A stretch of DNA of 64,000 bases from Macrostomum lignano (lineage: Eukaryota): assembly GCA_002269645.1 (NCBI GenBank), contig NIVC01000272.1, forward strand, positions 372,001 through 436,000. The letters run 5' to 3'. This document shows positions 9,444-58,262 of this stretch, one piece after another. A program made the position numbers and the translations under genes. The notes below the pieces were generated by a model. That model was not told the DNA's origin, searched no databases, and saw only the letters and a program-made list of their open reading frames with translations. The first letter of the stretch is position 1. Each line of letters begins with the position of its first letter.

Positions 9444-9468
9444 AACTGCAATATTAGGAGCATTATAA

Positions 9469-10163: not shown

Positions 10164-10271
10164 TTGTTGCGTTTCAAGTTGCTATGGAATATCTGTTGAG
10201 TCGCCTCTTACGACAAGCACAGATAAGCTGTGGACTTATTCTTTCCCGAGTTCCACACGGGTGTGAGTGAG

Positions 10272-11964
10272 TTAGCGGGGTCTAAGGTTATAGGGGTGGT
10301 TAGTTGGGGAAGTGTCCGTAGTTTGTGTTTCAGCGTGAGAAGTAGCAATATGTTTGGACGGTGTTTTTGTGTGTTTTTTTGTTGTTTAAGTTCGGTAGGA
10401 ACGTAGAGTCTGTGTTGATGCGTTTCAGTCGATGAATGTGCACGTAGAACTGCGGTTGATGTGGATCTTGGACATTGGCCAGTTTGGCTGTGGTTGCCGA
10501 AGTCAATGCTGATACACGAAATGGTCCTTTGTACTTTTGTGCGTGTTTATGCGTCTGTTGGGCTGGATAGTGCAAGTAGACCATATCTCCAACCTGTAGA
10601 GTAGATGCGTTGTTGGTTTTCGTTGCTGTTGCCGTCTGGTTGTCAAGATTGTGTTTGGCAATTTGCCAAGCCAGGTGTAGTCGCGTTGCAAAGGTCTGGA
10701 GTGTCGACGGTGTTTCCACGTACTGAGATGGTAGTAATTGTTTTGCTAGTAGGCTGGGCGGTTGAAAATCTCGAGCGAAAATTAATAAAAATGGCGTATT
10801 GTCCGTTTACCGATGTCCCGCGCTGTTGTATGCCATTGTTACCGCTTGCAAGTAGATGATCCAATCTTCTGGTTGCTTGTAGACATAGTGAGTCAGCATT
10901 TCATGTAAATTGCGGTGATATTTTTCTTCTAGGTTTGCCTTGTGATTGTAGGTGGCCGTAAAGATTTGTTGTATGTTGAGCAGTTTTGCAGCCTGTTGAA
11001 ATAGTTGTGAAGTGAACTGCGTTCCGTTGTCGGTGGTTAGAGTCTTGGGCGTTCCATACTTGCAGACAATCTCGTTGTAGAATGCCATAGCTACAGTTTC
11101 GGCGGTTATGTTCGGCAGTGGAATTGCTAGAGCAAATTTCGAGAAGACGTCGAGAGCGGTGAGGATGTATGTATAGTTGATCGAGTGTTGTCGTGCGGCA
11201 GGTAGTGGTCCTGTAATGTCGAGGGAGACTGTGTCCCATGTCGTTGTTTTAGGTACCGTTTGTAATTGTGGCTTTTGGCGTCGTCCTGTTTTGGCGGCTG
11301 CGAATGAGTGGCATTCGTAGCAATATTTGCTGATGTCTTTGGTCATTGTCGGCCAAAAGTAGAATTTTGCCACTCGTTCGATTGTCTTCTTAGCGGAAAG
11401 GTGTCCGGCTAATGGCATGTCGTGCAATTCTTGCAAGATAGCGGCTCGAAACAAATATGGCAGATAGAGTCGCGGAATATTGTCACAGATCCAATAAAGG
11501 ATTGCTTCTTTGAAGATTAGATTGTCGCTCTGTTTTTTAAGGAATTTTCTTTCTTGTTTTGTTAATTTTGCGTACGTGGCGTCGTCGTTGTTTTGTGCGG
11601 CTTTGTAGAAGTTGTCGTCTTGCTGTGCCGTAATCAGTTCTTGCATTTTCGGAATCGGATGGATAGCGTTGACTTCGTAGGCTCTGGAGAGCGCGTCTGC
11701 TGCTTTATTAAGAGGTCCTGGTTTATAGACTAGTTAAAAGTTGTAATTCTGAATTTAGAGTGTCATTCGGATGTGGCGGTTGTTAGTCTGTCTTTTCGTC
11801 TTGACAACGTGTGTCAGCGGTTCATGATCGGTCCTGACGATTGTCGGTAATGGAGAACCATAGATGTAGTAGTGAAACTGTCGTAGTGCGAACAGGACTC
11901 CAAGTAATTCTCTTTCTGTGGTGGACCATATGGTTTCATTTGGTCGTAGAGCTCGACTGATGTA
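10272..11964 (-). pseudogene. pol: Gypsy pol RNaseH-integrase segment, frameshifted, cut by the Polinton at 11964/11965
   Basis: ELHDMPLAGH...CYECH zinc finger, SLDITGPL, TDNGTQF, ends YNLRPR*; close relative of 51522-53768. Confidence 0.92.
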
Positions 11965-11979
11965 AGTAGTAATAGGAAA

Positions 11980-12235
11980 TTACACACAACCCCGAATTTT
12001 ACATTATAGAACAAATAGGAAGGTATCCGTCAAAATTTTCCTTACACACAACCCCGAATTTTGCATTATAGAACAAATAGGAAGGTATCCGTCATAAATT
12101 TCATTACACACAACCCAGATTTTTACATTACAAAACAAATAGGACAGTATCTGTCAGAAAATTTATTGAACACACAGCCCGATATGTTTTAAATAGAAAA
12201 CAAGTAGGACGCTATCCGTCTGTTTTCATTACACA
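11980..12235 (+). repeat. subterminal tandem repeat, ~63-bp unit, about 4 copies (about 2 in the right arm, ~27830-27950)
   Basis: TTACACACAACCCCGAATTTTACATTATAGAACAAATAGGA... repeats with progressive divergence. Confidence 0.85.
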
Positions 12236-12712
12236 TAATCTGTTTTGCAGTAGCCACATTCACTGTATACACACTTGCTGTTTAGAATTCTCGCTCATTC
12301 TCTCTAGTTATATCTTACACTCCGTGCTACCCATCTTCTACACACATCCCTCTCAGTCTAAATTGCCAAGAAAAAATCATATCAACAATTTGTGTGTACA
12401 GCCGACTGTACAATGCCCGAGCCCGCGAAGAGTCTTTCAAGGCACACACCCCCTCTCGCCCAAAAAGAGACCCTATGTACGTTGAAGTTGTACGGTGCTC
12501 TCCCCGCACGAAGAGAGGAACGACCCTCCCTCCCCCCAACCCACAGTGGCGCATAGGAATCAAAATAACCCACCCTTCGATTCGCGCAATGAGAAGCGTG
12601 CGCTAGCCAGCCTTAAAAGCGAAGTCTACTGCAACCGGTTTAGTTTAAGATAGCGAAGCCAAGTCAGTGCTCCGAATTCAACCCAGTGGCAAGAAATCTA
12701 CTTGTAAACACT

Positions 12713-13237
12713 ATGTCAAGTCAAATGCAGAAAATAGCCATTATATTAAATCGACAGTCTGAAGCACTGCAAAAGAATACTGAAGCTTTCGAAAAACTCC
12801 AAGAATCAGTGAGACAATTAGCCCAAGCTTCAAAAAACACACTCGAAACGCTAGAAGCAGAGCATCGTTCCTCGCAAATCCAAGTCTACAACAGTTCGGC
12901 TGCAATCGCCTCAATTAGCGAAGTTTTTCAACGAATATCGAAAGTGTCCAACGCGCAAAGCGCCAGCTTTGGTTTTCTCGCGCTAATTCTTGTGCTCCTG
13001 TTGGCTAGCACTGCCGTATACTGTCTCTGCAAACGCGGCTACAAGCAAAAGTTGATGCGCACTATTTCGCGTCCGCATCATGACAATACTCAAGCCACAC
13101 AAACGATCCCAAGGGCCAACACCGAAATATCCGTTTGGTGCACACCGATTCGCTCTCCTACTGTTCGATTCTCGACACCCCGCTCGTCGTCTCTACCAAC
13201 GTTTCCACAGGGCTCTGATGTCGGTCTAATCGTGTAA
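12713..13237 (+). CDS. coiled-coil plus single transmembrane protein of unknown function
   Basis: Heptad-like N-terminal region, hydrophobic FGFLALILVLLLASTAVYCLC, then basic KRGYKQK; identical protein in the right arm despite synonymous differences. Confidence 0.65.
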   Translation: MSSQMQKIAIILNRQSEALQKNTEAFEKLQESVRQLAQASKNTLETLEAEHRSSQIQVYNSSAAIASISEVFQRISKVSNAQSASFGFLALILVLLLASTAVYCLCKRGYKQKLMRTISRPHHDNTQATQTIPRANTEISVWCTPIRSPTVRFSTPRSSSLPTFPQGSDVGLIV

Positions 13238-14457
13238 TCGCAGAGCAGTACGATGGGCTTATTTTTTTAACTATAACGACCCGATTTTTACTGTTCTAAC
13301 AGTGGCTAGCGTAGCAGTTCCAATCATAACAAATATATTTCTCATGTTTAACCGTGGCCTGCTTAATAATCTATAATTTTTATTGACTGCAATGACGCAA
13401 TACGCTTCAACAGGTGGTAATATTTTGTAATGCTTTCTCTAGCCTACGAATTAAGCACAACGACCAATATTTTCAGTATTGTTATATGAAGAAACCCGTG
13501 CAGCTTATATATAATTCACTTATTTAGTTTACCGTGTTTTATACGATTAAAACCATGCAGCTTATAATTGACATTTTTTAATTTCACCAACACGTAAATT
13601 ATTATTGGTTGCGTATAGCAAACCGATAACAAGGTTCTCGACAATTTTTACCTCAATTTCGTTGGAAGAATTTTCTCAAGTTAAAGAAAGGAGATTGCAA
13701 GCATTTTCATTAGAACGACATGTTTCGCCTAACTTTAGGCATCATCGGGCAGATTGGAATTTATTTTATTTAAGTCAAAACGTAGAGTATAAATACATTT
13801 TAGTGGCAGATAGTCCAATCTGCCAATCTGAAGTTAACTCCGAGTGAACGTTTACTTTGAAATAAACGACGAACTAGTTTGTTGTATATTTGCACCACAC
13901 AAGTTTTTTTTCACTAAATCATCGAAAAAAGGATTCCTGTGTTAGAAGAATAGTTGTCTTCACGTGCCTTCAGGATGCCGAGCAACAAGCCACTCTGCCC
14001 GGTCCGGTATAGCTGGCGCGTACGGCCCACGAATTGTCTCCGAATTTGAGCTGCTCTGAGCAGCCGAATCTGAGAAGTTGGTTCAAAGATAAAGCGCAGA
14101 TTTAGCGGCATAATGGGAATTAAGATGCTAGACAGAGGCTTTACTCACCACTCTCTCCAGTAGACGCGCTCGCTCGCCTTGTCGGTTTTTCAGCAATTTG
14201 TGTGAGACAGGAGGAATTTAAGGAATCGCCAGTTTGGCCTTGTTTAAGTTGCCTAGGATGATAATATTTATTTTTCATCAAGATTGTAGGAAACAAGATT
14301 GGAACTAAAAAAACACCTTCTCTTCAACTATCTGCAAGGTATGATTTTGTTGGCATATACGAATTCCGCCACTAATTACACGCAGCTGACTACGTACATG
14401 AAAATGTAATACATAAGAAATAGAGTCAATGAATGCATATACATGTAAAACTGTTAC

Positions 14458-14902
14458 TATGAAAGGTCCCAAAACTCCGTCTCGCTAATGACGGCACCGT
14501 TCCTCTTCACGATTATGTTGTATCTGGCGTCCCTCAACACCTCGATCGCTACGTTCAGATCATTTTCACACATAACGCGGAATGTTGGCGAGCGGTAACC
14601 GGGAGGCAGTCGGTACCCAGGGGGTGGATGGTTGAATACCCCGTTTTTGAAGGCTGCAAGGTTCGATTGAAGAGTTGTTAACCACTACTCAATTAAGTTT
14701 ATGCAAAATATAAATTTTTACCGCTTACCTTCTTTGATGTACCGCTCGATAAGTTCCTTACGTCTTGATTCCTTGTCCATCGCGACGATTCAACAGCCCG
14801 TAGTAAAAGTAAGTTGTCAATGAGCTCGATCGAATGAAGGACAGACTTGTAGACCTTGGAGTTTTTATTAACATATATACCATATATACATGGCTCTCTC
14901 AT
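14458..14902 (-). CDS. hypothetical protein segment(s), probably spliced
   Basis: Stop-free frame by my translation of ~14458-14690: FKNGVFNHPPPGYRLPPGYRSPTFRVMCENDLNVAIEVLRDARYNIIVKRNGAVISETEFWDLS*; upstream ORF 14699-14902. Confidence 0.3.
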
Positions 14903-15465
14903 TAAGGAGAAACACCCAGCTAATTATGCAGGCAATCAACCACATTATTTATGTTCACTTGATGCCTGACTTAATTAAAGGTTCTTACGAAAAACGAATT
15001 GATTGCATAAAGAATGATTCCATAAATTGGCTTCCATAAATTAGGATTAATTACAGGTTCTCATGAGCAGTGATAAACAAAAGCATTGGTTTAATTAAAA
15101 CAACTTTTCTGAAGTTAAGCAGCTTATGTAGATTTGGACGCATGCAACCGAGCGAATCTGATGGTCGCTCTTAGATTCTGCTGTTGTTGCCATGGTGTTA
15201 CCATGGTATCCGTCCAGTCAATTAACTTAGCTTCCGGTGATATTGACACTTTCAACGCCGCCTATATGCAGGTGGTGACCGCATGATTCCCAGAGCTGTT
15301 TCAATCAGACTACTGATGAGGTGGGAATGCAGTCCCACCCCAACAAAATTTTCTATAAAAGAAAGCAGATTTTTTAGTCGAAAACCCAGGGAGCAAGAAC
15401 TACTGGACCGACCTCGAGACGACGACCTGTCGACCTCGGAACAGCAATGACAACGTTTCTCTCTG

Positions 15466-16601
15466 ATGCGGTTCTCACACAAGAAGATAGATCTGACGAA
15501 CGGAGCAAGAATCCATATTGGTGACGAGACAACCAACGGTGAATGTTTTTTTCGATCGGTGTCTTGGTCGCGACCAGGAGAGAAAAGACGCTACCCGGTG
15601 GTCCTTCAGACGAAGGACCAGATCGAACTGCTGAAGGGTCTTCATGAGAGGGGCAGCGTGTCGGATCATTCAACCTCACCCAACGCCGAACCTCGAGACG
15701 AAGTCGCCCTGCCTATTTTCGCAGAAGATTTTTGCAAAACTCTGTTCGACCTTTTGAGGTAGATTGCGTTTTTGTTAAATGTCTATGTACTGTAATATAT
15801 ACTTTTGCCATTTAAAAAAGTTGCCAAACTATTTTCTGCTGCAGATCGGTGGAGCGCATAATCGAGATTGAGCTGGAGGCCAAGTCAGTCTGCAAGATAC
15901 TGTTTCGCGCAACGAAACAGCCATGTCGCCACGCGACGGAAGGGTCTTCTGCAGACTACAACCCGGTGCAGTGGGTACCGCTTAAGGCCGCGTACGCTTG
16001 CCTCGGCTTTCGAATGAACGACCCTGCGCATCCGGACGGTGTGGAAGCCGCGCCGAGCGAATTTAAGGGGGTCTCAGGCCGTTACCACCTATCCATTCAG
16101 GCGACGTCCCTGTTTCGACCGCGGATTGCGACCGGCTGGAAGCTCTCCTTCGCTTTACGATCTATCGTACTAATGGACAGGAACCCAAGCAACCTAAATC
16201 TGTTTGCTGGACTCCGCCGACAGCTAGCCAAGAATCCGACCAAGCTAAAGCGCAAACTATCCACTGGGTCGGGAGAAGAGGAAGAGCAACCTGGGAAGAA
16301 GAAGTCCCAGACTTCGTTGGGGAGACAGCAAGCCAAGAAACCAGCTGCACCCCGTCGCTCTTCTGGCACTAAGAAGCAACAACAAAAGAAGGAGCATGAG
16401 CAGCACGACAGGTTGGACGCGGCTGAGCCGGTCCCTCCGGTCAAGGTTCTGGTGAGCCCTCCGCAAACCACTGCTGCTTCTTCTTCGGGCTTAGTTGACG
16501 GAAACCGGGTACCGTCAAAGGACCTAGCCTATCAGCGCTACCTGGCTGCAAACGCCGCGGAGCACTCATCTAGTGAATCGGGCGAGTCGGAGGCTGAATG
16601 A
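15466..16601 (+). CDS. two-exon hypothetical protein (exons to 15758 and 15845-16601), beta-rich core plus basic/acidic tail; possibly ssDNA-binding
   Basis: AG|GTAGAT donor at 15759 and TTTTCTGCTGCAG acceptor at 15844 join the 98-aa and 250-aa ORFs in frame across an AT-rich 86-nt intron; tail rich in K/Q/E/S. Confidence 0.6.
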
Positions 16602-16923
16602 TTAGAAACGTTTAAAATTTAAAATTGATTTACAAATGATTTCGATATATACCCGATTCTAAACTCGATAATATATTATAATACTAATTCCACAGACCAA
16701 ATCAGAGTTAAAAAATATTTTAAAAGTCGCACTAATTAATTTTGTTGTATCAGTTTTTTCTTGGTTTCAATAGTAAAAAAATGCATTAACCACCTGGCTT
16801 CCGCCAAGAGCACATCTATATCGGCGGCGTACTATTGTTTTGTGCCTTTTTTCCTTCTTTCAGCGAGTGGTGCTACTTATTTTTTCTGCAAGTCTGAAAC
16901 TTTTTACTGGAGAAAAACTGAGC

Positions 16924-17430
16924 ATGGAAGACATTGCGGCGGTGCTAGCGCTTAAAGCTTGCCCATGCAAAGTCTTTAATGCAAAGCCTACAATGTGCAA
17001 ATTCAAATTTGCACAATCGAAAATTCAGATATATCCTAACGGAAAGCTGACTATTTTTTGTAGTAGCATGAATACAGACATTAATTTAATTCTGCAATTT
17101 GTTAACGAACTTACGACTTACAAGGTAGATTTTGATTCTGTTCATGTTCAAAGCTCTACGTTGGTTGGCCAAGTCGAGTTTCCCGGTCAAAACATCTTTC
17201 ACTATTCAAAAATGGGTGTTGGAAAGTATAAAGACTTTAGCGTTAGCTACGATGCAGAAGTGTTTCCGCAGGCCATCAGTTTGAGACATTCGACAATCCC
17301 AAGACTATTCTGTAATATTTTTTGCACAGCAAAAATTGTTGCAATGGGAGCAACGAACCGTACGGAAGCAAATGTTATAATTAGTTGCGTGAAAACATTT
17401 TTGAACACAGTGTTTCAAACCGCAAAATTT
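16924..17430 (+). CDS. TATA-binding-protein (TBP)-like protein
   Basis: Two TBP-like repeats: KFKFAQSKIQIYPNGKLTIFC...VHVQSSTLVGQVEFP and SYDAEVFPQAISLRHSTIPRLFCNIFCTAKIVAMGAT (compare YEPELFPGLIYR...LLIFVSGKVVLTGAK). The frame stays open to 17838, overlapping the kinase. Confidence 0.72.
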
Positions 17431-17446
17431 GCAAATTATTCCAGCC

Positions 17447-18109
17447 ATGTCCAAGCAAATATTTGTGTTGGAAGGCCTCCCAGGATCGGGGAAGTCGACT
17501 GTTTTGCGCGAGTTGGCCCTGAGTTCACGACTGGAGAGATGGGAACGTCGGGTTCTATGGGCTCCGGAACCTGTCCAGGAATACAGCAGGCACCAGAGTC
17601 TAGAGGTGGAGATAAACCCACTAGAAGAGTTTTATCGTGGATTGCTATCTGCGATCGGGTTTCAAGTCCATGTGAACCACTGCCTGTTTCGGCGGGACAA
17701 GCAAATGAAACAGCGGTTGCTAGAGGGCGATCGGTACGACAGCCTGGTGATGGAGAGAGTGCTAGCTTCGAGTCATTCGTTCACGAGCGCTCTGGCGGAG
17801 ACGGGTCGCATCACGGTTCTGGAGAAGGCGATCTGTAATGCACAGATAGAGGCGCTGCAAGTGATACAGCCAAGCGAAGTCACGTTGATATATATGAACA
17901 AAGAACCCAGCTTGGCGTTGGAACGAGTTCGCCAACGCAATCGCACAGGAGAATCGGAGCTCCACCTCAACTACCTCCAACAGTTGGATAAAGCCATGCG
18001 TGAAAACTTCTTCCGATACCACCAGGTTCATCAGGTGTTAGTCAGAGCCGGTACAATGCCGAGTGATTTGGCTCGCCTTCTCGGACGCATTATCCAGGGC
18101 AGGGTTTAG
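17447..18109 (+). CDS. deoxynucleoside kinase family protein
   Basis: IFVLEGLPGSGKST P-loop, PEPV, VMER, IYMNKEPSLALERVRQRNRTGE lid motif, YLQQL. Confidence 0.88.
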   Translation: MSKQIFVLEGLPGSGKSTVLRELALSSRLERWERRVLWAPEPVQEYSRHQSLEVEINPLEEFYRGLLSAIGFQVHVNHCLFRRDKQMKQRLLEGDRYDSLVMERVLASSHSFTSALAETGRITVLEKAICNAQIEALQVIQPSEVTLIYMNKEPSLALERVRQRNRTGESELHLNYLQQLDKAMRENFFRYHQVHQVLVRAGTMPSDLARLLGRIIQGRV

Positions 18110-18419
18110 TCTAAAAAACTGTATTCCGATCGATATCGTGAGCCATATCTGATTTAATCATACAAAAAACATTATTAAGTATGAATCATTTGATTTAATT
18201 CAAACCTAATCTGATATAATAATTCAAATACAATATCTGAATGCAAATAAAAACACTGATTCTATTCTAATCCCTACCGTTTGCTTTTTTTTATTTCTAC
18301 ACAGTCATCGTGCAGGCCAAAAGTTTAGATACTAACTAACTACAAAGGCGCATATTGCACAGCAACAGCAAAATACGCGTTACCGCTCCGCCACTCACCC
18401 CCAAGTTTAGATACTACTT

Positions 18420-21400
18420 TTGTCTTTTTGTATGTTGGGGTTACTAGTAGTAAAATATGCCTCTAGCAGATTATGCAGTAGATTTGCTCAAAAATATGTA
18501 ATTCAACAACAAAAACCTCCCCACCACATCAATTTCCAGCCCATTGTACGCTGCGTGATTTGCAAGCGCGCGTTTCGCAGCAGGGCGGAGCTGCACGTTC
18601 ATGCACACCAGTTCTGCTTTACCCCTAAAAAGTTGCTGGATGAACCAGTGCGGCAGTTGACTGAGAACCCGCCGCCCGGCTGGTCAATTGACTTACGCGA
18701 GTCGGCACATCGAGGTCGTGTCAACTATCTAGTGTTTGTGCCCCACACCGCAGGCGAAGACGACGATGAGCGACTATTGCCCGGCAATGCAATGGCCCAA
18801 CTACGCACTTCGATATATCGCCTTTTTACCCGGCTGGCCTCGCCTCTACTACTAATGCGAACATGCATACATTTGAGAGTGAAAATGTTTCGATCAAGAA
18901 CAACTAACAACGATGACGATGACAACAATGAAATGCTGGAGAATATCTCTGTTTATTTCAACACTAACGTTGCAACGATCCGGTCTGACGAAAGCGACAG
19001 TGGTGGGTTGCTGCTCTCGCGCGATGCCTTCAACGAATGGTTCGAATCGGTTGTCACAGAATTGGTGAGCAAATTGGAAAATTTTACTGCCCGAGGTTCA
19101 AATTGGCAGTATGGTGGAATCGAACAACTGGACTTGATGCTGTGCATCTATCGTAAAGGGAGTGTTCGACCGACGAGAGCGAGTAGTAGTGCTAGCACTG
19201 CTCAGAACAACACCAGCGACCAGACGGCGCCGTCTGGTCACAGGCGTCGTACAACCACCCTACGTGGCAGCGGCGGCGGCGGCGGTGGCGGTGGCGGTCC
19301 ATTCAAAGTGCCGATTTCGCTTCGGCGCAAACGAGATGCAGTAATCTACTCTAAGCCACACAACGCTAACCAAACCGACTGTTTTCGGTATTCAATATTG
19401 GCAAGCATCTTTTATGAAAAGGTTGCCAAACCTACCTCAAAAAAAGCTACGCCCCATGGCTGATGATGGTGTTGTTCGGTAGTAGGGTTGGTCCGGCTCG
19501 ACATACAGCTGGTTCGTACAGGAAGTTCTGTCGTCGAAACCCGCATATCAGCTTGCGCATATTTGTCTGGGATCACGAAAGCAAGACTGGTGTTCTCTAC
19601 TTTTCATTGCGTAACAGGGAGGAGAAGCATTTAGCCAATTGTTTGTTCATTCCTCCGTACGGTGAGCACAATTTGGGGCACTACATACCCGTCCGAAATG
19701 TGAATTCGCTGCTGAGCACGAGAAATAAACGGAGGCGCTACTGCCCCGACTGCTTGGTCGGGTTTTCCCACACCGTTCCGTGGGACTACATTTTGAAGCA
19801 GCACAATTGTCAGGGAGGAACTATGGACCAACCGACAGTCCAGTGGGCCTCGTCAGACCAAAAACAATTTCGTGTGAGCCGATGCGCGCCAGTAGAATCG
19901 CTACCAAAACCCTCTGATGCAATTCTTGAGTTTACTGCACACGAGGCTCGATTGCCTCCGTTGTATATCATTTATGCTGATATCGAGAGCGTTCTGGCGC
20001 CGCCCGAGACCGTTGCTGAAGTCAACAAGCCGCGAGTTGCAAGTTCGAATATGCGGATTCGAGATATTCACGTTCCTTTATGTGTAGCCTATCGATTGGT
20101 AGTTTGCCCAGAACTTGACAAAATTTCGGCTGCGCGATTGCAAGCCAAAGTTGGTCAACAGCGACCATGCAATGTGTTCTACAATAATCCAGACGGCGGT
20201 CCTAATTGCATCCGCCAGTTTTTGTTGGCTCTTCGCCAGTTGGCTACGGATATTTGTTGCGAGACCGAAACTTCTGGAGCCACGTTTACTCCTTTGTTGC
20301 GCAAGTACTCACCTCTACCACCAAATAACCGAACGAGATTAGAATATTGTCAGTTGTGTCATCGGGCATTTGCTCCTGATGAGCGCCAGGTTTTGGATCA
20401 TTGCCATTTAAGTGGGATACCTAGAGGTATTGTATTTTTTTCGTGTAATCGGAAACTTTCTCTGAAACGATACCGGCTTCTTGTCTATACGCACTGCCTG
20501 AGCAACTATGACGGCAAATTTTTCGTTATAGAATTGTACGAATATTTTTCTGGAAACGATGTACAGCTTCACGTGCTTCCCGAAACCAGAGAGAAATTTA
20601 AAACTTTTTCAGTAAAGTTTAAGATACCACTGCGTGCTTCTTGGCGCCAGCAGAAGCGAGATTATGTATGGTTTGAAGTATGCTTCAAGGACACTTTTGC
20701 CTATCTGTCTACCAGTCTGGCGGTATTGGCTCAACGTCTCTTGCCAGAGCAGCTGGTTCACACGCGCGAGTTGCTCGAGGTGTATCCACAACTGCAGCCG
20801 GCTACGCTCCAACAAAAAGCCGTCTATCCATATCAATTCTTATCCGATGAAGAGTTACTCGATTCTTTTAAGCAGCTCCCACCAAAAGAGGCTTTCTACG
20901 ATAGCGTCACTATGCAGCACTGTTCCGATGAAAACTACGCTCGAGCTCAACGAGCCTGGTTAGAATTCAGTTGCAAGAGTTTGCGCGACTACACCACCGC
21001 CTATTTGCTGTTGGATGTGTTGCTTTTGTGTGATGTGTTTGAGACCTTTCGAAAGACAGCAATGCAAGAGTATGGAATTGACCCGGCGAATTTTCTTGGC
21101 TCGCCCATGTACAGTATGGCGGCTTGCTTGCTTCGTTTGGAGTCACCGATTCATTTGTTTACAGATTCTAAAATGTATTCAGAAGTAGAATCCTCAATTC
21201 GTGGAGGATTTAGTTTTGGAACCCTACATATTACGACCGCCAACAATAAACTTGTAAGAAAGTATCGCAACCAGTTGAATCAGGAGGAGCCTCAATATTC
21301 CACGCTGCGGGACAATGCACCCGATGAAACTTATTTGGTTTATTTGGACGCTAATTCTCTGTATGCTTCTTGCATGATTGAACCGATGCCGTGTAGCGAC

Positions 21401-22827
21401 TTTCGCTGGCTTACTAGGCAAGAGATTGCTCAAATCCCATGTGACAGCGATCTTCTTGAGACTCTGCATGTTAAAAGTTGCATGCTTGACTGGCTGACTA
21501 GTTTTTGCTGCAATGAGCGTGGAGCTCTGTTCAATGTAGACCTTTACTATCCACGATTTTTGCATGACTCGACCGCCGATCTTCCACTAGCTGTCGGGCA
21601 CGAGACGTTAACGGGCTCTCAGCTTACCCAACAGATGAAAGACGATTGGGTTTACCTGCAACGCCAACTGAATCCGGAACGCTATGCCAATGCTACAAGC
21701 TACGAAGATGTTAAACCTTTCAAGAGCTCGACAAAAAAGCTTGTCGGTTCGGTGGACCACAAGCGCAACTACGTGGTTCATCATCGTGCTTTGCGTCTCT
21801 ACTTAGAGTTGGGGTTGCGAGTCACCCGCGTACATCGAGTCATTGCTTTCGATGAGAAACCCATTCTGCGTCAATACATTAATCACAATATTGCGCGCCG
21901 GGTGGCTGCGAAGACAGAGTTTGAAAAAGACTTTTTCAAACTTTTAAACAATGCACTTTTTGGAAAGTTCCTTTAACGCGTTCGAGATCGGGTGTCGTAT
22001 CGAATGTGTTCTTCAGCGGAAAAGTTGGAGGCCTACATAGGCCGAGAAGAATTTTTGGGCGTGACAATATACACCGAGAGTTTGGCTGGTGTCAGCCTGT
22101 CTCCTCAACGAGTAGTGCTTAACAAAGCAATCATTATTGGTGCAACGATTTTGGATATTGCTAAAACGATTGTGTACGAATTTTATTATCAACACGTGCA
22201 GTTGAGTAAACCGCAGCTGTTCGTGTTGGAGAGCAAATGATGACCTTAAATATTCACCGTTTTCTCGTTGAATCTATATTCCAGGTGCATCGATCGCTTG
22301 CACGTGCTCGCGTACTCGGAGGTGATACAGACTCTCTAATGATGGCGTTGGTAATGCGAAACGCTTTTGAGACGCCATACGAGACGCTATTCAAGGACTT
22401 GGCCGCACAGGGGCTCTTGGATACTAGTAACTACCCACCAACCCACGAGCTCTATTCTCTTGCTCACAAGGGAAGATTGCTGGCCTGGAAAGACGAGTTC
22501 GGTGGTCGACTGGCGTTAGAATTTGTTTTTCTCCGTCCAAAGAACTACTCTTTTTTGCATTGCAATGACGAGGGAGCAGTTCGGCAGCTGTCTCGATCTA
22601 AGGGAGTGTGCAGAAGTGTTGGTCGTAGTCTGAAGCATAATGTTTTTTTGCATGTACTAATCGAGCGGCGTTTGCACTACGTAACCATGCAAACAATTAC
22701 GTCGCGCAAGCAGCTTGTGTTTTCGATGAGTCAGTACAAGCAGGCACTAGGCTACTTCGACACAAAGCGAGCCTGGACCAGTGATTTGGTCTCACTACCT
22801 TTTGGTCACTGGCGTCTTGATGATTAA
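18420..22827 (+). pseudogene. polB: protein-primed DNA polymerase B (Polinton type) with N-terminal C2H2 finger; frameshift ~19460, premature stop at 21974, probable intron 22196-22284
   Basis: CVIC...HVHAH, FTARGSNW, YADIES, DHCHLSG, HCLSNYD, FKDTFAYL, KAVYPY, YLDANSLY, KLLNNALFGK, DTDS, WKDE, LRPKNYS, SKGV, LPFGH. Confidence 0.95.
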
Positions 22828-23179
22828 TCAATTTATTGACTTGCTGCTACTTTGTAGACTAAGAATGATCTAATCCTAATATACGAGCTACGTTTCTGAT
22901 TAAATATTATCGTTTTATTCTATCTGCATAATTATCGTTTTATTCTATCTGCATAAATGTTGTCAAACTTGAGATTTCACTCATTTGGGAATTTAGGGTG
23001 TAAGCAAAGTAATATTTGCTAGGTACTTAGCACAAAAAATGTGGAATACGTACGCATTGAAACCATTAGTATTCGTCGATATTGAAGAAGAAGAAGCGTT
23101 TGATTTTGGGTATAAGCAACCATCTCTGCTAGAAGGTGGTGACTACAAAGAGACCTCTGTTTCACAAATTTCAGCCACA

Positions 23180-23707
23180 ATGGATTCGACAGATCAGAAG
23201 CCAGAACTGTGTGGCGAGACAATGACGACGGAGAAAAACGATTCAACGAATCATCTGCCGGCTGTACTGCAAGTGAAACGATTGCGGGAAACTGGTGTGC
23301 TTCCGGTGCGTCTTACCCAAGGTTCCATCGGCTACGATTTGTCTGTCATCGAAGACAGGTTGATTCCTGCACACGGCCGCGCGGCTGTACCGCTCGGAAT
23401 CTCTATTCGCGTTCCGGACGGGACCTACGGAAGGATTGCACCGCGATCTGAGCTTGCAATGCGTGGCATTGATGTTGGTGCGGGTGTCATCGACCCGGAT
23501 TTCGCCGGCGAGATTGCTGTGATTTTTTACAACCACAGCTTTGAAGACTACACTTTTAAGGCTGGAGAACGCATTGCCCAGCTGATCTTGGAACAGGCAC
23601 TGGTGGTTCCGGTCGTGCTGGAGGAGGCTCCTGGAGAGTGCTGCTTGATTGTTGAACCCAAGCCCCGCAAGCGCGGAGCTATGGGCTTTGGTAGCACCGG
23701 TCGATAA
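23180..23707 (+). CDS. dut: trimeric dUTPase
   Basis: GSIGYDL, GTYGRIAPRS, GVIDPDFAGEI, GERIAQL, RGAMGFGSTG; motif 2 reads RSE rather than RSG. Confidence 0.95.
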   Translation: MDSTDQKPELCGETMTTEKNDSTNHLPAVLQVKRLRETGVLPVRLTQGSIGYDLSVIEDRLIPAHGRAAVPLGISIRVPDGTYGRIAPRSELAMRGIDVGAGVIDPDFAGEIAVIFYNHSFEDYTFKAGERIAQLILEQALVVPVVLEEAPGECCLIVEPKPRKRGAMGFGSTGR

Positions 23708-23857
23708 ATGAGCAACAAGAGCAACAAAAAGACTTTAAAAATTTGAGAAACCTCAGATTAAATACACAATAACCACGCTTAAAAGCTATATGCAAGGGTA
23801 TTTTGTCTTGTCTACTATCGATTTTTTTCTTTTGCTTTGCTGGTACCGATATTTTGG

Positions 23858-24277
23858 ATGGGTAAAAAGTTAGTTGAAAAGAAGAAGAAAACTAAACTCG
23901 TATCAGGCCGAATTGATTCCAAAAGTAGAAGTTCAAAACAGAAGCAAAAACGAGGTTCCGGAATAGTAAACTGGTTAATCAACCATTTGCCTGTTGAGGT
24001 CCAAATACCTGGCTACCGTTTCTGTGGTTTCGGAACCCGCCTACGCCAGCGTTTATCGGAGGGACAACGCGGGGTTAATCGTCTTGATGATTTGTGTCTG
24101 ATCCACGACTTGGCCTATTCGAAGCACAAGGGGGTAAAGGAACGCTTGGAGGCAGACCGGGTTCTAGAAACCGGTGCCCGTGAGATTGCACAAGATCCAA
24201 AAACACCTTTCGGTGAAAAGGTTACTGCCAAGATGGTATCAAAAATGATGTCCTTGAAACAGAAACTGAGTGCCTAA
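23858..24277 (+). CDS. Polinton PLA2-like protein
   Basis: IPGYRFCGFGTRL...GVNRLDDLCLIHDLAYS...RLEADRVL; basic N-terminus. Confidence 0.85.
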   Translation: MGKKLVEKKKKTKLVSGRIDSKSRSSKQKQKRGSGIVNWLINHLPVEVQIPGYRFCGFGTRLRQRLSEGQRGVNRLDDLCLIHDLAYSKHKGVKERLEADRVLETGAREIAQDPKTPFGEKVTAKMVSKMMSLKQKLSA

Positions 24278-24278
24278 A

Positions 24279-24864
24279 ATGACTGCTGCAACGCCGGAGA
24301 CATTCAACTTGCAATTGGCACACGATTCCTCGTTCATTATTGCTGGCCCAGCGATGTCTGGCAAGACCGAGTGGACCCTGCGACTCTTGAAGGAACGCCA
24401 TGCGATGTTTGACAAGGCTCCAAAACGTCTAGTTTGGTGTCATGGGACCGATTTGTCAGCGACGGAACAGCAACGTATTCGAACGTTTTGGCTAGACGGA
24501 GGCGACAGTCCAATTCACTTTGTTAGAGGATTTCCAGACACGCTGGTTAGCCAACTTCAGGAGCACGATTTCGTGGTAGTGGACGATTTACAAAGCGAAG
24601 TTGCTAAATCTACAGCCTTGACTGGCATGTTCACAAAATATGCACATCATATACCCTTAACGTGTGTGTACCATTGCCAAAATCTATTTAATCGGTCGGA
24701 TCCAGAGGCGCGAACTCGGAGTCTATCAGCTAGTTATATTTGTCTCATGGGGAGTGTGCGAGACCGATCTGCCGTTGAACACTTGAGTCAGCAAATGCTC
24801 AGTCGGGGCAGTAAATTCTTGGTTCGTGCCTACGAGGACGCCACTGACAACAAACCGCATAGCT
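24279..24864 (+). pseudogene. A32-like DNA packaging ATPase, 3'-truncated by the inverted-repeat junction
   Basis: Walker A IAGPAMSGKT, Walker B VVVDDL, QNLF, AYEDAT; after KPHS the frame runs into antisense sequence of the repeat arm. Confidence 0.9.
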
Positions 24865-25867
24865 GTTTGCGGAGGGCTCACCAGAACCTTGACCGGAGGG
24901 ACCGGCTCAGCCGCGCCCAACCTGTCGTGCTGCTCATGCTCCTTCTTTTGTTGTTGCTTCTTAGTGCCAGAAGAGCGACGGGGTGCAGCTGGTTTCTTGG
25001 CTTGCTGTCTCCCCAACGAAGTCTGGGACTTCTTCTTCCCAGGTTGCTCTTCCTCTTCTCCCGACCCAGTGGATAGTTTGCGCTTTAGCTTGGTCGGATT
25101 CTTGGCTAGCTGTCGGCGGAGTCCAGCAAACAGATTTAGGTTGCTTGGGTTCCTGTCCATTAGTACGATAGATCGTAAAGCGAAGGAGAGCTTCCAGCCG
25201 GTCGCAATCCGCGGTCGAAACAGGGACGTCGCCTGAATGGATAGGTGGTAACGGCCTGAGACCCCCTTAAATTCGCTCGGCGCGGCTTCCACACCGTCCG
25301 GATGCGCAGGGTCGTTCATTCGAAAGCCGAGGCAAGCGTACGCGGCCTTAAGCGGTACCCACTGCACCGGGTTGTAGTCTGCAGAAGACCCTTCCGTCGC
25401 GTGGCGACATGGCTGTTTCGTTGCGCGAAACAGTATCTTGCAGACTGACTTGGCCTCCAGCTCAATCTCGATTATGCGCTCCACCGATCTGCAGCAGAAA
25501 ATAGTTTGGCAACTTTTTTAAATGGCAAAAGTATATATTACAGTACATAGACATTTAACAAAAACGCAATCTACCTCAAAAGGTCGAACAGAGTTTTGCA
25601 AAAATCTTCTGCGAAAATAGGCAGGGCGACTTCGTCTCGAGGTTCGGCGTTGGGTGAGGTTGAATGATCCGACACGCTGCCCCTCTCATGAAGACCCTTC
25701 AGCAGTTCGATCTGGTCCTTCGTCTGAAGGACCACCGGGTAGCGTCTTTTCTCTCCTGGTCGCGACCAAGACACCGATCGAAAAAAACATTCACCGTTGG
25801 TTGTCTCGTCACCAATATGGATTCTTGCTCCGTTCGTCAGATCTATCTTCTTGTGTGAGAACCGCAT
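24865..25867 (-). pseudogene. inverted, 3'-truncated copy of the two-exon gene at 15466-16601
   Basis: Same exons and intron; C-terminus replaced after VSPPQT by antisense ATPase sequence. Confidence 0.6.
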
Positions 25868-26816
25868 CAGAGAGAAACGTTGTCATTGCTGTTCCGAGGT
25901 CGACAGGTCGTCGTCTCGAGGTCGGTCCAGTAGTTCTTGCTCCCTGGGTTTTCGACTAAAAAATCTGCTTTCTTTTATAGAAAATTTTGTTGGGGTGGGA
26001 CTGCATTCCCACCTCATCAGTAGTCTGATTGAAACAGCTCTGGGAATCATGCGGTCACCACCTGCATATAGGCGGCGTTGAAAGTGTCAATATCACCGGA
26101 AGCTAAGTTAATTGACTGGACGGATACCATGGTAACACCATGGCAACAACAGCAGAATCTAAGAGCGACCATCAGATTCGCTCGGTTGCATGCGTCCAAA
26201 TCTACATAAGCTGCTTAACTTCAGAAAAGTTGTTTTAATTAAACCAATGCTTTTGTTTATCACTGCTCATGAGAACCTGTAATTAATCCTAATTTATGGA
26301 AGCCAATTTATGGAATCATTCTTTATGCAATCAATTCGTTTTCGTAAGAACCTTTAATTAAGTCAGGCATCAAGTGAACATAAATAATGTGGTTGATTGC
26401 CTGCATAATTAGCTGGGTGTTTCTCCTTAATGAGAGAGCCATGTATATATGGTATATATGTTAATAAAAACTCCAAGGTCTACAAGTCTGTCCTTCATTC
26501 GATCGAGCTCATTGACAACTTACTTTTACTACGGGCTGTTGAATCGTCGCGATGGACAAGGAATCAAGACGTAAGGAACTTATCGAGCGGTACATCAAAG
26601 AAGAGAAAGCTAGAGAAAGCATTACAAAATATTACCACCTGCTGAAGCGTATTGCGTCATTGCAGTCAATAAAAATTATAGATTATTAAACTGGCCACGG
26701 TTAAAACATGAGAAATATATTTGTTATAATTGGAACTGCTACGCTAGCCACTGTTAGAACAGTAAAAATCGGGTCGTTATAGTTAAAAAAAATAAGCCCA
26801 TCGTACTGCTCTGCGA

Positions 26817-27341
26817 TTACACGATTAGACCGACATCAGAGCCCTGTGGAAACGTTGGTAGAGACGACGAGCGGGGTGTCGAGAATCGAACAGTAGGAGA
26901 GCGAATCGGTGTGCACCAAACGGATATTTCGGTGTTGGCCCTTGGGATCGTTTGTGTGGCTTGAGTATTGTCATGATGCGGACGCGAAATAGTGCGCATC
27001 AACTTTTGCTTGTAGCCGCGTTTGCAGAGACAGTATACGGCAGTGCTAGCCAACAGGAGCACAAGAATTAGCGCGAGAAAACCAAAGCTGGCGCTTTGCG
27101 CGTTGGAAACTTTCGAGATTCGTTGAAAAACTTCGCTAATTGAGGCGATTGCAGCCGAACTGTTGTAGACTTGGATTTGCGAGGAACGATGCTCTGCTTC
27201 TAGCGTTTCGAGTGTGTTTTTTGAAGCTTGGGCTAATTGTCTCACTGATTCTTGGAGTTTTTCGAAAGCTTCAGTATTCTTTTGCAGTGCTTCAGACTGT
27301 CGATTTAATATAATGGCTATTTTCTGCATTTGACTTGACAT
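26817..27341 (-). CDS. second copy of the coiled-coil/TM protein
   Basis: Identical translation to the left-arm ORF in the ORF track. Confidence 0.65.
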   Translation of the reverse strand: MSSQMQKIAIILNRQSEALQKNTEAFEKLQESVRQLAQASKNTLETLEAEHRSSQIQVYNSSAAIASISEVFQRISKVSNAQSASFGFLALILVLLLASTAVYCLCKRGYKQKLMRTISRPHHDNTQATQTIPRANTEISVWCTPIRSPTVRFSTPRSSSLPTFPQGSDVGLIV

Positions 27342-27965
27342 AGTGTTTACAAGTAGATTTCTTGCCACTGGGTTGAATTCGGAGCACTGACTTGGCTTCG
27401 CTATCTTAAACTAAACCGGTTGCAGTAGACTTCGCTTTTAAGGCTGGCTAGCGCACGCTTCTCATTGCGCGAATCGAAGGGTGGGTTATTTTGATTCCTA
27501 TGCGCCACTGTGGGTTGGGGGGAGGGAGGGTCGTTCCTCTCTTCGTGCGGGGAGAGCACCGTACAACTTCAACGTACATAGGGTCTCTTTTTGGGCGAGA
27601 GGGGGTGTGTGCCTTGAAAGACTCTTCGCGGGCTCGGGCATTGTACAGTCGGCTGTACACACAAATTGTTGATATGATTTTTTCTTGGCAATTTAGACTG
27701 AGAGGGATGTGTGTAGAAGATGGGTAGCACGGAGTGTAAGATATAACTAGAGAGAATGAGCGAGAATTCTAAACAGCAAGTGTGTATACAGTGAATGTGG
27801 CTACTGCAAAACAGATTATGTGTAATGAAAACAGACGGATAGCGTCCTACTTGTTTTCTATTTAAAACATATCGGGCTGTGTGTTCAATAAATTTTCTGA
27901 CAGATAGTGTCCTATTTGTTCTATAATGTAAAATTCGGGGTTGTGTGTAATTTCCTATTACTACT

Positions 27966-29340
27966 AAGGGTATCGAGTTGTTGGTCATACATCTGGCGTA
28001 ATAATTCGTTTTAGAGGGGTTAAAATTAAGTGTTGATATTTGAGTAAATAATAAATTTGAGTTTCTAATTCTAGTGTGCTCAGCACGCCAACGAATGAAT
28101 ACGTAAATCAAATAGTCACTATAGTCTTTTACTCTCCCCCCATCTCCTGACATCATTTGTCTAGGAGTATGGGAATTGTACTTCTTTCGAACTGTGTCCG
28201 CGAGCGTCTCATCATCAGCTTGTACGCTCACTTCCTTACTGAACTGTTGCCTGTGTTGGCGTTGCGTTCTCCACGGATCACTTGGGCCGTGTGCACCTGG
28301 AAAGATTCTTGCGTCGGATCGTCGATTTTCCTTAATCTGACGGACGTGGCGCTGTTTCTTTTCACGATTTCATATGCGCCCGTGAACTTGGCTTGGTGCT
28401 TTCCCTGTCTCATTGGGATCTGAAGCATAACTCTGGTTCCAATAGCTAGTGTAGGGGCCATTCGATTTTTGTTAGCTCTGCCGGTATTCTTTTCCTGGGC
28501 CACTTTGAGATGGTGTCTGGCTATTTCTCTAGCCAGGGTAATAGCTTCTTGCATTCGGGCCGCATAGGACGGTTCATCCATATATCTTACTAGATTCAGC
28601 TGAGTTTTGAGCTCTGTGGGCATCAAGGGGTTTCCTCGCGAAAACCAATTCGAAGGGAGAATAGTTTGAAGAGGATTGCTTGGCTGTATTGTAGGCATAG
28701 ATTGTGGCTGATAAGTATTTATGCCATTCATTTGGATTTTCCGCCGTGTAATGTCTAAGCATGTTTGCAGAGTAGAGTGTAGTCTCTCTACATGGTTTGC
28801 TTGCGGATGGTAGGTGGACGAGAAGATGTGCTTGACTCCCAGAATTTCTAGAACTTCAGCTAATAGTGATGCCGTGAAATTTTTTCCATTGCTTGCGAAA
28901 ATTTCTATCGGGATTCCAAACATACAGAAGACTTGGAACAAAGTTTCGGCTGTGGTTTCTGCTGGTAGATCTGGATTGGGAATGCAAAGGCGAATTGTGA
29001 AAAACAGCATAGAATAGTCAAGATGTGGGTGACTGTCTCGTTCCGGAGTTTTGTGGGGACCATGGGTCCCTACGAGATCTACTGATAGATTTCGGGCATT
29101 TGGATGAGCCCCTTGTGTAGTTGGCCGAATTTGTTCTTAGCGCAATCCATGCAGTCTTGACAAAAGGTTCGAATATCGGAAACCATTGAGATCCAGAAAT
29201 AGTGTCACCAAATTCTTTCTAGGTTTTTTTCGAATCCTAGGTGCGCTGCTAGTGGTAGTGCATGTAACGAGTGGCAGATTGTTTCGCGAAACTTGAATGG
29301 AAGCACTATTTGTTGGGTGTGATCTGCTGTCCTGTGAATG
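27966..29340 (-). pseudogene. pol: integrase region, PPT and LTR stub of a different Gypsy family
   Basis: Decayed H...H...CQDCMDC finger, FGIPIEIFASNGKNF, STYHPQANHVERLH, FTGAYEI; purine tract GGGGGGAGAG near 28135-28145. Confidence 0.8.
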
Positions 29341-31089
29341 ATTCCGTGATAGAGGGGTTAAAATTAAGTGTTGCCTGCTACCCCTCTGCCACGACAGGCA
29401 GAAACTTCGAAGAACTGAGACAAGTCCTTTCTTAGGTTTGAGCTCAAACTTTACTAAACTCGGCAGTGGAGAGCCTCGGCTCTTCCAATTGCATTGTATT
29501 TATAACACTCAGCATTGTGCTCGGGGGCAGTGTTGGGGTGGTGGCGTGATATTTTTCCGCCCCACCCATCTTATTTGCTTTTTTGCATAGTTAGCTAGTT
29601 AGATGGATTAACACAGAGAGGGCGCGCATGGTCTGCGTGGCTGTTTTAGTGCTGGCAAATGGGTGGGTCTAACATTAAATATCTATGATAAGTTTGTAAT
29701 AGCCTTCGTTTGTAAAACGAAAGATCCTGCCGAGCTGTAGGCCGTTTGCAAAGCCTTGCTGACCGCGCCGTTCAACTAGTTTATTAAGGTTGGCAATCTG
29801 TACAAGCACCGCGTCGATCGTGAATGCTCCTGCTCAAATTCTTCTAGAGAATTCTCAGGCACATGCTCGCCGTTGGCCTTGTAGGCCTGCGCAGCTCGTC
29901 CAGAGTCTTGTTGATTTGCGATTGCTTGTCGGCAGTTTTTGCTATTCGACCGATGATAGTTGGCTTCTCGATGGGTGTCCGAGCAATTGCATTATATTTA
30001 TCGGCCCAAACATTCCAATTGCCAAGATCTTTACTAGAAAATACTGCCTTAATGAAGTTCTCCAGATTTTCGATGTAAACGTTGTCGCCTGCTCGCATTT
30101 CAACATCCATGGCAAGATGCAAAGATTAAGCAAGTCAAAAATAAGAAATTGCTGCATGCTCTGTAAAGGTTAACTGGCGCGTGAATCACATAACATGCTC
30201 TTTCTATAAGGCTGACCTTAAAATTCCCACAAGGAACTTCTTTTTTCCTTGGGTCGAAAAAGGAGAGGAGAGAAACGTGTCTCGTTCACTTTAAACTCCT
30301 TTCCCGAGAGCACCAACCAAAACAAAAATTAGGAGTTGTGAGTACTCCGCAGAGAATCAATCGTTTGTCGAAAAAAAACTACAATTGCTTAATGATTTCT
30401 GCAAAGTTATAGTAGCTGTCGTAATCTTAAACGTAGGTTACTCCATACTTAAGAAACCAGTGGCTTTGGAGAGCTAGATTAATATTAGGGACATTGATAT
30501 CAACGCCGGGCCAATATTTTCTCATGTAATCACTGCATTCTAGTTTGCATCGGTACTTACTCTTGTAATTAGACTCGTGCGCTTTGTAATAAAAACCTGG
30601 AGAGACGATTGGAAGCATTTTTATTAAGAATTTAATTTTTTTCGGGGATGAGCACCCTGCGCTGAGGATCTGGTTTAGCGTTGCGAAATGAATGTGGGGA
30701 GAAGAATACATATTATTTTCTGATTGTTTCGAAGATGCTATGGGTGGATGTCAGTGGATTATGTAGGACACCTGTTATGCTCTGATTCTGTCAGGGATAA
30801 TATGGATGGATTTAGGAGGATTATGTTCGAAGTTTTCGGAGCAAGTGCGACTCCCCTTTTTTCTGATTCTGTCGGGTATAATATGAATGGATTTAATAGG
30901 ATTATGGAGGACAATAAAAAAATTGTCTCAAAAGCCCCCTCATGCATTCTACTGAGAGGAAATGTATAATTTATTGTTAGCTAATAGAAATGTTTCAGAC
31001 TCTTATTCAAAGGAAGATAATGATGCAATGAATATCGCCGTTACAATTAATTGACGATGCTAATGGGCACGTAAACAATGTGTACACAA

Positions 31090-57736: not shown

Positions 57737-57905
57737 ATAAACTATACTCGAATATGAGTACTTCCCTGACGAAGAGTAACCTTACTCGAAATATCGGTAA
57801 CATTAACTATTTCGAAGTAAATTGACTTTTATCAGTCCTTTCACCGTGTCAGCGCCTGGGATTGGATGTGCGTTCCTCTCTCTCTGTCTGCCTGTTTGTC
57901 TTGGT

Positions 57906-58262
<357 letters not shown>

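Follow-up and report, generated by a model that had tools for sequence, protein, structure and literature searches.

How does a mobile element that carries genes for a TATA-binding protein (TBP), a deoxynucleoside kinase (dNK), and a dUTPase order the expression of its genes inside an animal? This question is raised by a Polinton of the flatworm Macrostomum lignano that lies in the window analyzed here (i.e., the 64,000 nucleotides at positions 372,001 to 436,000 of the forward strand of contig NIVC01000272.1; coordinates below are window positions unless a contig is given). The element extends from AGTAGT at 11965 to ACTACT at 27965, and genes for a TBP-like protein, dNK, a protein-primed DNA polymerase B (pPolB), dUTPase, a phospholipase A2-like protein (PLA2X), and an ATPase lie between these ends, all on the plus strand. 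The first-pass annotation of this locus had named these six co-oriented genes, and the placement of open reading frames (ORFs), their strand, and their Pfam matches agree with it. From a comparison with relatives in the same genome and from contigs of sequencing runs, we favor, with moderate confidence, a two-step program in which host splicing divides an early block transcribed from a host-type promoter, and the TBP of the element turns on a block of virion genes.

The first-pass annotation had recommended the recovery of complete relatives. The stretch containing the TBP and dNK genes has seven matches in the genome assembly searched for relatives (G000, whose contigs are given C-numbers), and in two of them both ends are present, flanked by a 6-bp target-site duplication, together with what is probably the full Polinton core. 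One (C889:26751-45674; 18.9 kb) is 96 to 98% identical to the window copy; the other (C2529:17164-35936; 18.8 kb) shows 64 to 75% identity to the window copy in the left half and 96% from PLA2X onward. Polintons have been described with terminal inverted repeats, target-site duplications of 5 to 8 bp, and lengths of 13 to 25 kb (PMC10748475). The terminal repeats of the two complete copies measure approximately 130 to 195 bp, and after PLA2X both carry a full ATPase gene, ORFs of 331, 142, and 236 amino acids (aa), an integrase with a chromodomain, a basic ORF of 143 aa, an ORF of 441 aa, and a protease. We provisionally take the 441-aa ORF to encode the major capsid protein and the 331-aa ORF the minor capsid protein, from their size, their position, and a presumed likeness to such proteins; neither ORF has a Pfam match. 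Several core proteins matched their Pfam families below the cut-off, namely, the integrase of C889 (rve and chromodomain; E = 2.6e-6), the full-length ATPase of a relative (Pox_A32; E = 0.002), and the protease (Peptidase_C48; E = 0.033), while the ATPase of the window copy had no Pfam match. The integrase has homologues in all six families described below, and the 142-aa ORF has a pX-like end (Adeno_PX; E = 6.9e-5). The identification of the element as a Polinton is borne out by pPolB, the integrase, the ends, and the 6-bp duplications of the complete copies.

The capsid protein has at least 96 matches in G000 (95 of 486 candidates scored), from which one or two copies were fetched per capsid identity class. 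Six families (A to F; here "clade I") have major capsid proteins 67 to 100% identical to that of family A, and all six share one gene order: first gene, TBP, (dNK), pPolB, dUTPase, PLA2X, ATPase, and virion genes. The dNK gene is missing from both family C copies examined; this family accounts for 26 full-length TBP matches, and the window TBP has 70 matches in G000 (84 candidates scored). The expectation that the three genes recur in other copies thus holds for TBP and dUTPase, which by this comparison are traits of the lineage, and fails for dNK in family C. Between families A and B, dN/dS is approximately 0.12 for TBP, 0.11 for dNK, and 0.18 for dUTPase (Nei-Gojobori method, with synonymous sites near saturation), and on these estimates all three genes are under purifying selection.

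The most direct view of how the early block is processed comes from contigs of sequencing runs, of which 8 of 24 were compared (none of the 24 is on record as RNA). In run X21, the sole contig on the element stretch covers the dUTPase gene (23174 to 23719) and starts with 20 letters that are absent from the window; in run X10, from another study, a contig begins at the same base, 23174, with six unaligned letters. The 20 letters plus the shared G are identical to the 3' end of the M. lignano spliced leader as published (in a passage of PMC8629364). This leader sequence occurs 61 times in G000, compared with 0 occurrences of a reversed control, and GTAAG followed by an Sm-like site stands directly 3' of it at five of the six leader array loci sampled. 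At the acceptor, the dUTPase transcript contig thus carries the host spliced leader, a sequence that other parts of the genome encode; this is the mark of a trans-spliced gene, and the dUTPase junction is the only one observed. The sixth array locus sampled and the first six listed leader matches lack GTAAG and the Sm-like site and look like retrocopies. Leader copies L036 to L041 and L047 have other sequence in place of GTAAG, several with a common downstream start, and are likely to be retrocopies or a leader-bearing retroelement family.

Acceptor sites of the host type are concentrated before the dNK and dUTPase starts. We scanned for [CT]TN[CT]AG, a loosened form of the host trans-splice acceptor motif [T/C]TNCAG (given in a passage of PMC8629364), ending no more than 25 nt before an ATG; C593 was omitted because family C was already represented by another copy, and the family D dUTPase gene, which has a frameshift, offered no in-frame ATG. 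The motif preceded nine of nine dNK and dUTPase starts initially, and nine of ten after addition of the family F dNK gene, which lacks it. It preceded none of three first-gene starts, 3 of 54 virion gene starts, and 221 of 2,432 background ATGs. The dNK and dUTPase acceptors lie 2 to 23 nt before the ATG, in varying phases.

The pPolB gene has a different arrangement. In four of the six families (A, B, D, and F), a phase-0 acceptor without an adjacent ATG stands at the conserved start of the protein; in families C and E, an ATG of the gene's own is located exactly at the acceptor position of the others, and the protein starts with M-P. In family B, a stop codon lies two codons upstream of the acceptor start, and no Met occurs before residue 112. 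The leader of flatworms terminates in AUG, and in Schistosoma it is known to supply start codons (as stated in passages of PMC9851317). Judged from this pattern of starts, pPolB of families A, B, D, and F probably takes its initiator Met from the terminal AUG of the host leader.

The TBP gene has a third arrangement, which points to conventional splicing. Its frame opens at a phase-0 acceptor in all six families, directly after a stop codon in the case of family C. The first downstream Met is residue 21 to 44, and the residues before it form strand 1 of the predicted fold (pLDDT, approximately 95). Inside exon 2 of the first gene, all six families have a phase-0 GT[AG]AG[CT] donor that follows a Leu codon 42 to 50 codons before the stop; it is the sole GT[AG]AG of the exon in five of the six families, and the sequence around it is poorly conserved. 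A start codon supplied to TBP by the leader was our initial reading, and it was demoted once this conserved in-frame cis donor had been found. The conserved phases suggest that TBP is probably made as a cis-spliced fusion onto the protein of the first gene. The simplest reading of the gene structure is that two isoforms may exist, i.e., a free first protein with an acidic tail and a fusion that ends in TBP. The first intron of the first gene is conserved, and its protein had no matches in Pfam, PHROGs, or the PDB; it may resemble single-stranded-DNA-binding proteins.

The TBP-like domain itself is predicted to fold as TBP. Its Pfam match lies below the cut-off in the window ORF (E = 0.0014) and above it in the relative on C2529 (E = 1.1e-7). 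A model built from a 19-sequence alignment has a two-repeat saddle fold (pLDDT, 93.7); that alignment included two canonical TBPs, of which the Pfam result for C2529 is independent. A model from a four-sequence alignment (pLDDT, 41) was discarded. In Foldseek, the first 44 ranks shown were TBP structures (best E = 3e-9; TM = 0.71). The model compares with cellular TBPs at a TM score of 0.70 and 18 to 20% identity, and with giant-virus TBP-like proteins in BFVD at 0.61 to 0.67 and 9 to 16%. In a tree that held no giant-virus sequences, and which is thus no test of a giant-virus origin, the clade I TBPs grouped with four database proteins (support, 97/93), apart from the host TBP. A profile search with the TBP returned 14 proteins, four of them close, and the named matches were all from M. 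lignano. Searches for relatives outside the host (viral contigs with TBP and capsid queries, metagenome contigs, and a word search with a single TBP) returned none, and an exact look-up of nine element ORFs among annotated proteins found none. The tail of the TBP frame, which overlaps dNK, was considered as a functional part and ruled out: dN/dS is approximately 1.1 in that frame, and the arrangement varies (an in-frame run-through in family D and a stop before dNK in families E and F). At C297:261440-262818 (family D), TBP and dNK form one open frame of approximately 470 codons, with the dNK acceptor still present.

A candidate target for this protein lies before the virion genes. Among words upstream of these genes, the most enriched share the core TATAAG (23 of 54 regions versus approximately 2 expected). 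Four units, headed by PLA2X, minor capsid, PZ, and p143, give 24 unit heads in the six families; 21 of these have TATAAG[CT][AT]A in exact form, 2 have TATATGCAA, and 1 has no box. The exact boxes stand 41 to 88 nt before the ATG, and none was found within 110 nt of 30 downstream-gene starts. By strand, the box occurs 45 times in the coding direction versus 4 times in the opposite one (150 kb of overlapping stretches). The first genes, in contrast, keep canonical TATA boxes in all three Polinton clades of this genome; in families A, B, C, and F, TATAAA or TATATAA precedes the first gene. From this distribution, the TATAAG box is a candidate target of the element's own TBP.

Two further clades, examined at three (II) and four (III) loci, bear other TBP-like genes. 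Clade II (e.g., C414:265881-266543, C100:1009640-1010284, and C84:671624-672184) is much more numerous and has a TBP-like gene that lacks introns and starts at an ATG of its own, with an ORF size shared by most of 150 PF00352 matches scored. It also carries a PC4-domain gene (Pfam E = 3.6e-6), and an ORF of approximately 280 aa lies directly upstream of TBP. No TATAAG box was found in clade II. Clade III (C807:311600-320700, C416, C384, and C261) carries an integrase, capsids, an ATPase, a divergent TBP-like gene without a Met before the first strand, and an upstream box of its own, [CT]TA[TC]AAATA, instead of TATAAG. This box occurs 40 times versus 1 time by strand and has 2 matches in the clade I stretches. 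No pPolB match was found in the clade III stretches fetched, and C807 has a Fic-domain ORF (E = 6.7e-14).

Put together, these features suggest the following program for clade I. A canonical TATA box would drive a single long early RNA that spans the first gene, TBP, dNK, pPolB, and dUTPase. The host spliced leader would be added at the unpaired acceptors of this RNA, in the manner of host operons, an event that was seen for dUTPase and is predicted for the others; dNK and dUTPase would then start at their own ATG, and pPolB of four families most likely at the AUG of the leader. Cis splicing of the first-gene donor in frame to the TBP exon would yield a TBP with an N-terminal part of approximately 300 aa, while intron retention would leave the first protein free. 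This TBP would recognize TATAAG(C/T)(A/T)A before four virion units, i.e., PLA2X-ATPase, minor capsid, PZ-p236-integrase, and p143-major capsid-protease, a step that we liken, as a working analogy, to the herpesviral TBP mimics that read TATT late promoters. The dNK and dUTPase would be accessory enzymes of deoxynucleoside triphosphate supply, with dNK dispensable. The full combination (a host-style early operon, a pPolB that depends on the leader AUG, and an alternatively spliced TBP fusion that by itself serves as the late switch at a TATAAG promoter private to the element) is a possibility short of an even chance.

Several observations weigh against this program. The direct RNA evidence consists of one leader-bearing contig and one coincident start, and the contigs carry alleles of a rearranged fold-back locus (X10 that of the window, and X21 that of C4009), with C889 differing at 15 places; the observed dUTPase splice could be a by-product of read-through. 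Among the eight runs compared, no joint was seen at any predicted intron, no leader junction appeared at the dNK or pPolB acceptors, and contigs of X1, X5, X6, and X8 cross the first predicted intron unspliced. These unspliced contigs or their runs may be DNA, and those of X1 and X5 look like DNA. In families A and E, a "late" box also precedes the dUTPase gene, which blurs the division into early and late. The box motif was recognized post hoc, and the program does not account for the translation of five virion genes that lack both box and acceptor. For pPolB, an in-frame Met lies 36 codons upstream in family A and 15 codons upstream in family F, in sequence that is not conserved. The dUTPase contigs originate from window positions 23175 to 23800 or C4009:59779-60539, and neighbor-element read-through and incipient host use are both possible sources.

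In adenoviruses, one promoter feeds several genes through alternative acceptors, and the leaders are viral exons joined in cis. An analogous cis hub, in which the first-gene donor is spliced alternatively to TBP and to pPolB, would need no leader start codon and would make the dUTPase leader incidental, trans-splicing being possible at any unpaired acceptor (according to a passage of PMC8629364). The donor is conserved in all six families and in phase with both the TBP and the pPolB acceptors, which fits such a hub. It fits less well that the family E acceptor lies 14 nt before pPolB's own ATG and out of phase with the donor, that a cis fusion cannot keep the frame at dNK and dUTPase acceptors whose distance and phase vary, and that in families B, C, E, and F the 700 nt preceding the pPolB acceptor contain no GT[AG]AG donor. 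We regard the hub as unlikely, and the one junction observed here, unlike the adenoviral ones, is that of a host trans-spliced leader.

A quite improbable alternative is that the TBP-like protein acts as a decoy or modulator of host TBP/TFIID and that the TATAAG box is read by host machinery. The low identity to cellular TBP, the slight difference between the box and a canonical TATA box, the lack of the box in TBP-bearing clade II, and the failure of a TFIIB-like partner to turn up in general Pfam scans of the window and relatives all speak for this alternative; a box that is clade specific and changes with the TBP type between clades I and III, beside first genes that keep canonical TATA, and a full saddle fold kept under purifying selection speak against it. 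The first-pass annotation had seen in the three genes a large-DNA-virus-like kit and an unusually autonomous Polinton lineage adapted to non-dividing cells; taken as a kit borrowed from such viruses, this reading is one that we consider very improbable. Large DNA viruses commonly carry nucleotide-supply enzymes and TBP-like proteins, giant-virus TBP-like proteins are among the BFVD matches, and TBP, dNK, and dUTPase all show conservation. The TBP is, however, at least as close to cellular TBPs as to giant-virus ones, dNK is nearest to the solved structure 1j90 (a multisubstrate deoxynucleoside kinase; E = 5.6e-6), with the P-loop, EPV (catalytic Glu), ER, and lid arginines kept in the alignment, and dNK is lost in family C; a large-DNA-virus origin of the kit is not supported, and no observation indicates non-dividing cells. 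Nor does autonomy describe an element with such heavy reliance on host splicing, in a genome where two other clades also carry TBP-like genes. The two-step program with leader trans-splicing is the reading that we retain.

The window copy itself is a defective Polinton that is incapable of replication or packaging (Table 1). Its AGTAGT and ACTACT ends are real but do not represent the usual terminal repeats of an intact element, a point that the first-pass annotation had missed: the right arm is an inverted copy of the left end. Positions 24865 to 27965 are 99.0 to 99.8% identical to 11965 to 16468 in inverted orientation, minus approximately 13444 to 14722. The junction (24864/24865) cuts the ATPase gene at codon 195 and shows no microhomology, and no target-site duplication was found at the flanks of the copy. 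Integrase, protease, and capsids are missing; the first gene is broken in one place and pPolB in three (by a frameshift, by a stop codon within the gene, and by an intron that is defective). The borders of the pPolB intron are fixed because families C, E, and F lack it. Because a second contig (C4009) shares the identical junction, together with the same right flank, the rearrangement is real and no one-off assembly slip. Long terminal repeats of an intact element were ruled out, the repeats of the complete relatives being shorter than 200 bp and the long arms here a fold-back. The lack of a target-site duplication would agree slightly better with two inverted insertions that a deletion has fused than with integrase-mediated insertion of a fold-back genome.

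Table 1. Features of the Polinton copy in the window
Feature	Position	Strand	Remarks
Left terminus	11965..12220	+	AGTAGT end and ~3.9 copies of a 62-bp repeat; same end at both termini of C889 and C2529
174-aa ORF	12713..13237	+	Hydrophobic segment; duplicate at 26817-27341, - strand
TATA box, canonical	15354..15361	+	Predicted early promoter, before first gene
First gene	15447..16601	+	Two predicted exons (15447-15758, 15845-16601); ~350 aa, acidic tail; exon-1 frameshift in window copy
Splice donor, phase 0	16452..16457	+	Inside first-gene exon 2; predicted joint to TBP exon
TBP-like exon	16864..17838	+	Phase-0 acceptor 16862-16863; TBP fold 16864 to ~17430, then unconserved tail overlapping dNK
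Deoxynucleoside kinase (dNK), open frame	17447..18109	+	PF01712, E = 8.5e-19; acceptor 2 nt before ATG; AATAAA at 18246
pPolB	18540..22827	+	DNA_pol_B_2 (PF03175), E = 2.3e-19; phase-0 acceptor 18538-18539; predicted intron 22202-22284
TATAAGCAA box	23111..23119	+	Upstream of dUTPase acceptor
dUTPase exon	23175..23707	+	Pfam E = 4.3e-31; acceptor 23173-23174; ATG 23180; ATTAAA 23757
PLA2-like gene (PLA2X)	23858-24277	+	PF08398, E = 3.4e-7, over cut-off; variant late box TATATGCAA at 23787
Packaging ATPase, truncated	24279..24864	+	195 of 239 codons; fold-back junction
Inverted left-end duplicate	24865..27965	-	In place of integrase/capsid/protease half; junction also in C4009

The pPolB gene also encodes an Endonuclease_7 (Endonuclease VII/HNH-type) domain at 20340 to 20460 (Pfam, over the cut-off); HNH insertions have been described for nematode and oomycete pPolB2 (PMC10748475). 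The OTU domain found at the N terminus of Alpha adintovirus PolB had no match in Pfam scans of the window and relatives. The 174-aa ORF near the left end had no Pfam or PHROG match over the cut-off, and a weak homologue is located near family D. Fragments of rve-type integrase occur on either side of the element, and the flanks (8851 to 11964 and 27966 to 29010) contain decayed integrase pieces of long-terminal-repeat retroelements, with a RING-finger ORF at 8851 to 9438 on the minus strand. Positions 11000 to 11964 are repeated at 45986 to 46950 and 52249 to 53213 (94%), and tandem arrays occupy 31089 to 31676, 57879 to 58262, and 58834 to 62368 (periods of 30, 4, and 34 bp; approximately 20, 96, and 104 copies). 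At C4948:5001-14600, a different Polinton-like gene set adjoins a 5'-truncated family F copy; its ORFs are presumably ATPase- and capsid-like.

If the proposed program is correct, the dependence of pPolB on a borrowed start codon would tie the element to hosts whose leader ends in AUG, an unusual host-range lock for an element class known for crossing species. For a possible early/late viral program of animal Polintons, this lineage offers a box, a candidate factor, and exact splice acceptors as testable parts. In the literature within reach (subscription papers, Repbase, and bioRxiv supplements lay outside it), we found no description of the TBP/dNK/dUTPase block, introns, leader acceptors, or late box of Polintons, nor of leader trans-splicing, late promoters, TBP function, or ordered gene expression in animal Polintons. 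For the terms tried, the accessible passages of 10.64898/2026.06.19.733378, 10.64898/2026.10.13.758929, PMC10748475, and PMC11161782 yielded nothing on TBP, dUTPase, or nucleoside kinases, and those of PMC12721341 nothing on TATA, kinase, or leader; a literature match for Polinton "trans-splicing" concerns, in the passage matched, the host gene eri-6/7 (10.1101/2024.01.15.575659). The bare gene list is less surprising than the first-pass annotation held. Starrett et al. 2021 (parts of PMC8502044) name "TBP" in their Fig. 5 legend, which deals with MELD viruses, and mark a dUTPase on a Hydra map, and bidna-class parvovirus segments often bear thymidine-kinase- or dUTPase-like genes (a passage of PMC11071296).

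The element shares with Polintons/Mavericks and the Alpha adintoviruses (as described in parts of PMC8502044) a pfam03175 pPolB, an rve integrase carrying a chromodomain, PLA2X, terminal repeats, a 6-bp duplication of the target site, and a length of approximately 19 kb, and probably also the packaging ATPase, the protease, and the capsid-like ORFs; it differs from them in uniting TBP, dNK, and dUTPase in one conserved block and in its spliceosomal introns, leader acceptors, and clade-specific late box. A viral sequence that bears a host leader has been described in dinoRNAV, with the dinoflagellate spliced leader; that is an RNA virus, discussed in terms of mimicry or retroposition (passages of PMC10235124), whereas the present case is a DNA element with conserved acceptors. 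The TBP mimics of beta- and gammaherpesviruses (KSHV ORF24, EBV BcRF1, and HCMV UL87; passages of PMC6541308) likewise combine a TBP-fold protein with a modified TATA box before structural genes and no RNA polymerase of their own; in contrast to them, the protein here is a near-minimal TBP core of approximately 185 aa, no partner complex was found, and the candidate box is TATAAG rather than TATT. Flatworm spliced-leader operons (passages of PMC8629364) share with the early block the leader 3' end, the [T/C]TNCAG acceptor, and a first gene without an acceptor, and the leader AUG starts more than 40 Schistosoma cDNAs (PMC9851317, in a passage citing Cheng et al. 2006). The operon proposed here differs in that its carrier is a mobile element of virus-like type, in which the DNA polymerase gene would be the one to rely on the leader AUG.

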